Notes: a model not told the origin generated them from the letters alone. Positions 4,758 to 5,399 are shown, counted from the first letter of the stretch. The stretch is 7,023 nt of DNA from a virus (IMGVR_UViG_2648501841_000009), one strand, 5' to 3'. Translations and numbers: made by a program.

Positions 4758-5399
4758 ATGCGTGATTACGCAAAAGTTTCTCCGCGATTCTGGCTGGGAG
4801 AAACGGGGAGAGAACTTAGAAAGGCGGGTGCAGAAGCGCAAGTTGTTGCTTTTTACCTGATGACATCCCCTCACGCAAATATGCTGGGTTTGTATTACCT
4901 GCCAGTTTTATACCTTGCTCATGAAACCGGGCTTGGTCTGGAAGGGGCTTCAAAGGGGCTTAAAAGGGCTGTTGAAGCTGGTTTTTGTAGCTATGACCAT
5001 GATGCAGAGATGGTCTGGGTCCATGAAATGGCAGCCTGGCAGGTTGGGGAAACGTTGAAGCCTGGCGATAACCGTTGTGCAGGTGTCAGGAATGAGTATG
5101 CATCATTACCTGAAAACGCTTTTCTGTCAGTGTTTTACGACAGATATAAAACGGATTTCCATCTGGATGTGAGGCGGAATAATAGCCGAAATTCGGTAAG
5201 GGGCTTCGAAGGGGCTTTTAAGGGGCTTCGAAGCCAAGAACAGGAACAGGAGCAGGAGAAAGAACAGGAACAGGACAAAAACACTATGGTTCATGGCAAA
5301 AAAACACCACGAACCAGGCAGGGGATGTTCAGACCGTCAATCCTGGTCAGCCAGCAGGCACGACACCGGAAGCCGATTCGGGCGCTGTGCAGCAGGTGA
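4758..5399 (+). CDS. phage replication initiator, N-terminal origin-binding part (annotated ORF begins at 4647)
   Basis: GAGGT precedes ATG 4758 (MRDYAKVSPRFWLGETG...). Sits in the lambda O position upstream of a DnaC-like gene and contains iteron-like repeats. The C-terminal 35 residues look out of frame; the upstream ATG at 4647 has no RBS. Confidence 0.65.
   Translation: MRDYAKVSPRFWLGETGRELRKAGAEAQVVAFYLMTSPHANMLGLYYLPVLYLAHETGLGLEGASKGLKRAVEAGFCSYDHDAEMVWVHEMAAWQVGETLKPGDNRCAGVRNEYASLPENAFLSVFYDRYKTDFHLDVRRNNSRNSVRGFEGAFKGLRSQEQEQEQEKEQEQDKNTMVHGKKTPRTRQGMFRPSILVSQQARHRKPIRALCSR
4942..4971. repeat. iteron-like direct repeats, cluster A
   Basis: AAGGGGCTT at 4942 and 4953 and a degenerate AAGGGCTG at 4964, giving an exact 11-bp phase. 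Confidence 0.5.
5198..5235. repeat. iteron-like direct repeats, cluster B, with embedded palindrome
   Basis: AAGGGGCTT at 5198, 5209 and 5220 (11-bp phase). A 12-bp perfect palindrome GGCTTCGAAGCC lies at 5224..5235. A 56-nt tract with no T on the top strand follows (5229..5284). Confidence 0.55.

Follow-up and report, generated by a model that had tools for sequence, protein, structure and literature searches.

In this study we examined a 7,023-nucleotide stretch of viral DNA (IMGVR_UViG_2648501841_000009; hereafter the window), which corresponds to the immunity/replication region of a Rac-like lambdoid E. coli O157:H7 prophage. Its replication initiator gene (4758..5848, + strand; 363 amino acids in the intact allele) carries two arrays of 9-bp words of the form AAG(GGG/CCC)CTT. 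We consider it probable that these words are the iterons of the winged-helix N-terminal domain (N-domain) encoded by the same gene, and that they form the core of the prophage replication origin. Judging from sequence comparison, a function of the words at the DNA level is close to certain. Across hundreds of phages they are conserved as DNA rather than as protein, for which initiator binding sites, i.e. an origin, are the most likely explanation.

Results

Two phased arrays of a 9-bp word in the initiator gene

The word AAGGGGCTT occurs exactly five times in the window, at 4942, 4953, 5198, 5209 and 5220, always on the + strand. Such exact matches are expected 0.08 times and none of 200 dinucleotide shuffles reached five; with up to one mismatch allowed, six matches were observed versus 2.0 expected. 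The first-pass annotation had described two clusters, one with three words at 11-bp spacing from 4942, the third being degenerate, and one with three words at the same spacing from 5198, about 256 bp downstream. Our analysis confirmed both: the degenerate copy is AAGGGCTGT at 4964, and all copies in the second cluster are exact. Array I (4942..4961, +) comprises two exact words placed 11 bp apart within codons E62-L68 (EGASKGL), at the start of the predicted recognition helix, and is followed by a weak part (4964..4979, +) made up of the degenerate third word and an in-phase half-site, AAGCT, at 4975. Array II (5198..5228, +) comprises three exact words in 11-bp phase and encodes the peptide VRGFEGAFKGL of a predicted disordered linker. 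A further in-phase half-site, AAGCC (5231..5235, +), joins array II to a T-free, purine-rich (CAGGAR)n tract (5229..5284, +) that encodes the linker SQEQEQEQEKEQEQDKN. The tract is exactly 56 nt long, as had been reported, and is the longest T-free run in the window. Its GAACAG-type hexamers were recovered by Tandem Repeats Finder as a period-6 array (5238-5275), alongside period-11 arrays at 4942-4968 and 5198-5233. Arrays I and II can be aligned as a single 42-nt repeat, the copies of which lie 256 bp apart.

The repeats had also been noticed as recurring peptides. EGASKGL and EGAFKGL do recur, but the DNA repeat is independent of the peptide repeat. Since 11 is not a multiple of three, successive words are read in three frames (EGASKGLKRA, GFEGAFKGLR), and repetition at the peptide level does not account for the repeated DNA. 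A perfect 12-bp palindrome that had been pointed out in the second cluster is indeed present (GGCTTCGAAGCC, 5224-5235) and is made by the last word together with the half-site AAGCC. We rejected it as an element of its own, as it is a by-product of the quasi-palindromic repeat units and is not conserved.

Conservation of array I in homologous genes

To compare the words between phages, we gathered homologues with the N-terminal 174 amino acids of the initiator from GenBank phages (Klebsiella phages, Shigella/Shiga toxin (Stx) phages POCJ13 and 75/02, Acinetobacter phages, Escherichia phages Fraca and CharmingMan, and Ralstonia phages), 80 IMG/VR contigs and protein databases. The comparison covered about 120 homologous loci. 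A common plan was found in 78/78 distinct genes: two words at nt 185 and 196, and two or three 11-bp-phased words ending just before a AGCCARGARCAGGAR tract. Words, phase and position are under purifying selection at the DNA level. Whether homologues retain the 9-mers and their 11-bp phase had been set beforehand as a check, and both are kept even where the peptide changes. Per unit length, the two zones contain about 420 times as many exact words as the other 211 kb of sequence in the loci.

Codon use in array I was analyzed in 40 representatives with less than 90% amino acid identity; these came from phages of Escherichia, Klebsiella, Acinetobacter and Ralstonia and from IMG/VR contigs of uncultured viruses. 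The array is encoded by GAA in 37/37, GGG in 39/39, GCT in 32/39, AAG in 39/39, GGG in 34/39 and CTT in 36/39 sequences, and the top-codon fraction amounts to 0.94, compared with 0.54 in 60 other conserved columns (Mann-Whitney p = 6e-5). The third base of the spacer Ser codon in array I varies freely, and all four codons are in use for the invariant Thr and Gly near the array. Further downstream, the GAA codon of E73, which bears the half-site AAGCT, is present in 94% of sequences.

Array II keeps the DNA word while the peptide changes

Counted from the tract, phased sites of array II occur at -34 in 14/39, at -23 in 38/39 and at -12 in 30/39 homologues, and the half-site AAGCC is found at -1 in 38/39 (AAG-CCA). 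The Ser159 codon is AGC in 97% of sequences, although serine has six codons. Neither the 11-bp phase of the array nor its distance to the tract changes, and the words may lie in +, - or mixed orientation within one array, often as the reverse complement AAGCCCCTT. The centre triplet of the -23 site reads CCC in 26 sequences, GGG in 11 and GGC in 2, with AAG/CTT arms in 35/39. As the centre can be GGG or CCC, the encoded peptide changes while the DNA word stays. We counted 31 peptide variants in 39 sequences (EGASKGL, EAPSKPL and QAPSEPL among them), and of the 174 family proteins that have the tract, 95 carry a minus-type peptide and 41 the plus-type peptide seen in the window.

These data bear on a different explanation, in which the repeats would serve a protein-level need for an EGAxKGL peptide, or an RNA or single-stranded DNA (ssDNA) structure formed by array pairing or a local hairpin. 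It draws on the recurrence of the two peptides in the window, on the partial complementarity of the arrays, and on a hairpin of -10.5 kcal/mol (z = -4) that array II of the O157 sequence can form as ssDNA. Against this, most relatives have APSKPL-type peptides at array II, the region is predicted to be disordered, a third array is non-coding, and the Acinetobacter homologue does not form the hairpin (z = +1.7). A conserved hairpin or cruciform was accordingly rejected, hairpin and palindrome being specific to the plus-orientation arrangement. Pairing between the arrays as RNA or ssDNA was rejected as well, since complementarity occurs in minus-orientation members only and no pairing is conserved. 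We regard the peptide and structure explanations as largely refuted and allow them the slimmest of chances.

Most outlier words (7/10) belong to a third phased array, which is non-coding and closely precedes the start codon in a subgroup with Acinetobacter-phage-like loci among its members. In loci L044, L050, L056, L057, L068 and L073, one to three 9-mers in either orientation were observed at -40 to -15 from the start codon, abutting the ribosome-binding site. This upstream array suggests autoregulation. The main rival to an origin is that the initiator, or another DNA-binding protein, does bind the words, but mainly for autoregulation, copy control or handcuffing, with the true origin elsewhere in the prophage. 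In the subgroup the extra array overlaps the ribosome-binding region, which in iteron plasmids is the classic place of Rep autorepression, and no clear AT-rich unwinding element is found beside array II. Most members, the window included, nevertheless have no array before the gene, and mid-gene arrays beside a linker tract with a joint beyond it are placed as the origins of lambda and SPP1 are (PMC7466680, PMC6316719). We consider it unlikely that the words serve regulation in place of an origin, though autoregulation could coexist with origin function.

Words change in concert with the N-domain

A second class of words (class B) was found in a Klebsiella phage protein of 31% identity, which has the same layout with the word GAAAGGGTT at nt 175/186 and 408/419, followed by NQEQDQEQEQDQEE. 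The pattern is repeated in relatives from Kluyvera, Pluralibacter, Nitrosospira, Kaistia, Undibacterium, Noviherbaspirillum and others (a four-sequence alignment was used for the class B relatives); the distal array is AAAGGGTTT or its reverse complement AAACCCTTT, and a Gln-Glu (QE) tract again follows. Between classes A and B the repeat unit changes symmetrically in both arms, GAAG-GGG-CTTC versus GAAA-GGG-TTTC. In array I this arm change converts EGASKGL to ERVSKGF, and the distal array is changed likewise. The words thus switch in concert with the N-domain clade and, as far as can be read from the sequences, each N-domain travels with its own words.

C-terminal domains and the genes of their helicase or loader partners are exchanged between relatives at a mosaic joint just behind the tract. 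In a megablast search against phages with a different N-domain, the match begins at query position 639, which is window position 5278, at 91-92% identity. Phage Tritos shares the C-terminal module from 5278 on at 92% identity but has an unrelated N-domain, which places a recombination joint directly after the tract. The mosaic joint exactly at the tract end, together with the presence of the tract in genes with unrelated C-terminal domains (C-domains) and in two N-domain clades, could be taken to mean that repeats and (CAGGAR)n tract do not bind protein but are conserved linker DNA, through which phages would shuffle modules by homologous recombination. This would leave unexplained why array I lies in a folded domain with frozen synonymous sites, and it would not account for the 11-bp phase, the GGG/CCC-only flips, the non-coding third array or the concerted switch. 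Moreover, the tract varies freely at synonymous sites and would therefore be a poor recombination anchor. We judge this explanation very improbable.

The same design was also observed, with other words, in genes with other N-domains. The Tritos initiator (L254, Phage_rep_org_N-type) has GTCACG five times at 10-11 bp (nt about 388-436), followed by a TDKDTDKD tract, and two more GTCACG copies lie in its N-domain codons at nt 137 and 158. In E. coli K-12 Rac ydaU (L253), the palindromic 10-mer TGTTCAAACA occurs in mid-gene at nt 393, 426 and 449, and an A-rich tract coding for KDTDKD comes after the copies. The N-domain of YdaU is a different one (DUF1376), and only the PPGFRG tail is in common with the initiator of the window. 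The ydaU repeats follow the same design and are a candidate for the historical Rac origin oriJ. We also considered plasmids with the initiator gene as the sole replicon; the 10 plasmid matches are prophage fragments, chromosome-sized or very large records, or the integrative and conjugative element (ICE) R997, and are uninformative.

A predicted winged-helix N-domain and an exchangeable C-terminal module

An AlphaFold2 model of residues 1-158, built with 61 sequences, has a mean predicted local distance difference test (pLDDT) score of 85.5. The modelled fold covers residues 4-142 and its core is predicted to be a winged helix, with helices at 25-36, 50-57 and 60-73, a strand at 45-47 and a hairpin at 77-80/85-88. 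Residues 143-158 are predicted to be disordered (pLDDT <50), and array II corresponds to amino acids 148-158. Helix 60-73 is the third helix of the predicted winged helix, so that array I would encode the start of what is usually the DNA-reading helix. This arrangement permits a further idea, which we put forward tentatively and rate as possible rather than likely. If the DNA-reading helix is encoded by its own binding sites, the two words of array I being read in two different frames, a change of iteron would also be a change of the reading head. The gene would then hold a self-referential module in which protein and site co-evolve via the same nucleotides, and the exchangeable C-domain joined to it through the (CAGGAR)n tract would let this module plug into any helicase-loading system.

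The C-terminal module (5278..5846, +), which is putatively partner-recruiting, begins at the mosaic joint directly after the tract. Its tail (...VNHISEPDTEIPPGFRG; 5774..5845, +) resembles the extreme C-terminus of E. coli DnaT, with E values of 0.02-0.07 over 22-24 residues against PDB entries 6aep, 2ru8 and 9zbt. The NCBIfam DnaT model gave an E value of 0.002 and 17.8 bits against a cut-off of 201, and aligned to residues 340-363 only. The tail SEPDTEIPPGFRG is common to E. coli DnaT, Rac YdaU and the Klebsiella and Tritos initiators, and is probably a short docking motif for DnaB/DnaC-type loading machinery. The database name 'primosomal protein I' arises because the tail matches the DnaT C-terminus. 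DnaT itself is thought to help recruit DnaB/DnaC (PMC13377028). The likeness is confined to the last 22-24 residues (SEPDxxIPPGFRG), the N-domain and the repeats being without a DnaT counterpart. The downstream partners in 30 relatives are DnaC/IstB-like proteins (9/30), DnaB-type helicases (9/30) or Toprim-containing proteins (2/30). The N-domain is the sole coding element that always accompanies the words, while the C-domains differ. Within the C-terminal module we also observed CCGGAAGCCGATTC (peptide PEADS) three times, at 5366-5379, 5438-5451 and 5462-5475, with in-frame spacings of 72 and 24 bp; it is found in Tritos as well.

Discussion

Comparison with known origins and binding-site arrays

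Lambda and Stx phages carry their iterons and unwinding tract inside the initiator gene O, with four iterons in lambda and six in Stx phages (PMC7466680). As in ori-lambda, the repeats described here lie in the initiator gene and, for array II, in its interdomain-linker part, with a strand-asymmetric tract on one side. Also as in ori-lambda, the N-domain and its sites appear to form one specificity unit, the C-domain is matched to the helicase-loading partner, and the unit follows cro and cII-like genes in the early rightward operon (PMC7466680). The mosaic joint directly behind the tract likewise has its parallel in the ori-lambda/O specificity module. Two features expected of an origin within an initiator gene are seen, namely DNA-level selection on repeats inside an open reading frame and, for array II, a position in the predicted linker between the N- and C-terminal modules. 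Lambda iterons are roughly 19 bp long with internal dyad symmetry and lie by an AT-rich tract; each is bound by an O dimer, the N-domain of O making the contact and its C-domain recruiting P-DnaB. The present words instead measure 9 bp, follow an 11-bp phase, have quasi-palindromic AAG/CTT arms around an asymmetric centre, and tolerate inversion of that centre between GGG and CCC. They differ from ori-lambda further in forming two arrays 256 bp apart, one of which falls in the recognition-helix codons of a folded domain, and in being flanked by a (CAGGAR)n tract of about 50% AT that is not AT-rich. The partner, too, is a DnaC-type loader (in relatives, a DnaB helicase or a primase-helicase) and not P.

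In phage SPP1, oriL is located in gene 38, and the replisome organizer G38P binds direct repeats in its own gene by an unwinding element, with the loader (G39P) and the helicase (G40P) encoded downstream (PMC6316719). The window resembles this system in its initiator-gene repeats and in the PHROGs label 'DnaD-like helicase loader'. It is unlike SPP1 in lacking a Phage_rep_org_N Pfam match and in its proteobacterial hosts. SPP1 moreover has an AT-rich unwinding element and a second origin, oriR, whereas here no second array copy was found in the 5.4-kb loci except for the upstream array in one subgroup. Plasmid iterons (RepA/pi/RepE/TrfA) are 17-22 bp long, recur at a spacing of about 22 bp outside rep, with two winged-helix domains to read them; the initiator family has one predicted winged-helix core in a 142-amino-acid domain and 9-bp words at 11 bp inside the gene. 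The 11-bp periodicity is shared with OmpR/PhoB-type winged-helix proteins, monomers of which bind tandem 11-bp direct repeats (pho boxes) on one DNA face. This is a structural analogy only, as those proteins are transcription factors with no homology and no origin function.

Proposed mechanism and evidence against it

The concerted switch, and the elimination of other candidates, suggest the N-domain as the binder of the words, while their position and the analogy with known systems suggest that the origin would fire there. In the mechanism we propose, N-domain monomers of the initiator would bind side by side on one helix face at 11-bp intervals, filling array II (5198-5235) and array I (4942-4961), and in some relatives also the array before the gene. 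The resulting nucleoprotein complex, which may loop out the roughly 255 bp between the arrays, would destabilise nearby DNA. Unwinding may start in either of two candidate regions, the (CAGGAR)n tract after array II or the AT-richest stretch between the arrays (5100..5160), which is the most AT-rich of the gene with a GC fraction of about 0.37. Across 39 homologues this stretch, at -120 to -90 relative to the tract, is also the least stable zone on average (AT 0.57 versus 0.44), but it is confounded by FLSxFYDRY coding. The tract, present in about 76% of family members, is a candidate for an unwinding/loading zone or for a flexible acidic linker, and such a role is not separable from its Gln-Glu coding. 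The exchangeable C-domain, on its disordered Gln-Glu linker, would bring in the helicase through the neighbouring DnaC-like loader and host DnaB; in relatives it would act through a phage DnaB-type helicase or primase-helicase.

Several observations weigh against this interpretation. The initiator is not a lambda O homologue by sequence (no Pfam hit). The third word of array I is not conserved among homologues, and neither is the hairpin; the homologue comparison as a whole supports the origin-in-initiator reading of the first-pass annotation. Array-to-array spacing ranges from 243 to 291 bp across homologues and helical phase is not kept, so that helical phasing between the arrays was rejected as a conserved feature. 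The strand-asymmetric tract that had been proposed as an origin part does lie beside array II in the linker, but its T-freeness follows from the Gln and Glu codons, which contain no T. DNA-level codon selection on the QE tract was rejected, since tract and remaining gene sequence do not differ in CAG/CAA and GAA/GAG use (Fisher p = 0.39 and 0.36). At about 50% AT, the tract falls short of the mean stability of the locus by just about 0.1 kcal/mol per step. Near the arrays, neither a DnaA box nor an IHF site nor a GATC cluster was found. ICE-borne (R997/SXT-type) relatives of the N-domain have neither arrays nor a QE tract, which also holds for the Rhizobium relatives. In the open literature, with subscription journals outside the search, we found no description of the words or the origin, no report of binding or origin activity for any family member, and none of AAGGGGCTT as an iteron; the papers on Eru replication types of Stx phages mention neither iterons nor DnaC. 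Finally, the window appears, from the ECs1072 gene name only, to be the same prophage as Sp4 of the Sakai strain, and the only amplification of Sp4 after mitomycin C came from regional replication starting in neighbouring Sp5 (PMC2669165). Sp4 has a DnaC-type loader and a non-cleavable repressor without cleavage domain (PMC2669165).

Gene neighbourhood and the initiator allele of the window

Strain FORC_044 matches the window at 100% identity, and many O157 genomes match it at 99.9%. The genes of the window are ordered as RelE/RelB toxin-antitoxin, helix-turn-helix repressor (-), YdaS/cro-like, YdaT/cII-like and an opposite-strand 'ECs1072 family' gene, followed by the initiator gene, a DnaC/IstB-like AAA+ helicase-loader gene (5855..6645, +) and a DUF1627 gene. 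By several criteria the initiator gene is the equivalent of gene O: its operon position, its PHROG families and the predicted winged-helix N-domain. Open reading frames and PHROG 1701/3729 support its annotation. The whole protein belongs to phrog_1701 ('DnaD-like helicase loader'), and its halves fall in separate PHROGs, residues 1-190 in one and residues 207-363 in another ('replication initiation protein'). The intact protein of 363 amino acids matched no Pfam family at E <= 0.01; deposited phage records name homologues 'DNA replication protein O' or 'primosomal protein I'. The loader gene passed the Pfam cut-off for IstB_IS21 (3.9e-19), matched Bac_DnaA at 3e-8 and belongs to PHROG 50 ('DnaC-like helicase loader'). 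Masked N runs are present at 2104-2113 and 5876-6007, the second of which takes out the 5' part of this gene.

In the window the initiator is split over two frames, 4647/4758..5399 and 5387..5848, while an intact coding sequence of 363 amino acids (WP_001205823) is found in most O157 genomes. The split is located at an A7 homopolymer (5297..5303, +), which is A8 in most O157 genomes; the 1-bp deletion shifts the frame after the N-domain and linker. The identical FORC_044 allele is labelled 'frameshifted' by RefSeq, and the A-run is not kept in relatives. A7 may mark a true pseudogene, stem from an error in sequencing or sit at a site prone to slippage. The frameshift would remove the C-domain, leaving a product with the putative origin-binding half and about 30 out-of-frame residues, so that the origin would need protein supplied in trans.

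Other features of the region were observed as well. The RelE/ParE-RelB toxin-antitoxin pair (2320-2798, -) adjoins the prophage repressor. The repressor/cro intergenic region (3228-3335) contains about three copies of a 13-bp tandem repeat, TTGCTTATAGTTT (3282-3322), and a dyad, AAAAAACTGTTGATTGCATACAGTTTTTT, which are probably operators. The 'ECs1072 family' gene (NCBIfam NF033230; 4224-4715, -) has no other annotation and opposes the early operon; it sits between the cII-like gene and the initiator, with its end about 40 bp before the initiator start. In strain PV15-279 (L001 8046-10358), ISEc8 of the IS66 family splits a DUF977 gene downstream of the replication module.

Significance

The N-domain family comprises about 4,000 cluster representatives at 50% identity, which have no Pfam model and are named 'hypothetical protein' or 'DNA-binding protein' in RefSeq. 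It is found in O157 prophages, Stx-converting phages (POCJ13, 75/02 Stx), prophages of Klebsiella OXA-48 strains, Acinetobacter baumannii phages and Ralstonia phages. While the principle of the design is already known, the family, its word classes, the short 11-bp phase, the array in recognition-helix codons, the tolerated centre flips and the absence of a classical AT-rich element are new. With its frozen synonymous sites and peptide-rewriting orientation flips, the gene offers a clean natural example of DNA-level constraint in coding sequence. A testable origin and an initiator specificity code with two word classes would help to annotate phage origins and to build mini-replicons, and the word classes may help to predict replication incompatibility or cross-activation between co-resident prophages. 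The lambda/SPP1 design would thereby be extended to an unrelated initiator that does without a classical AT-rich element.

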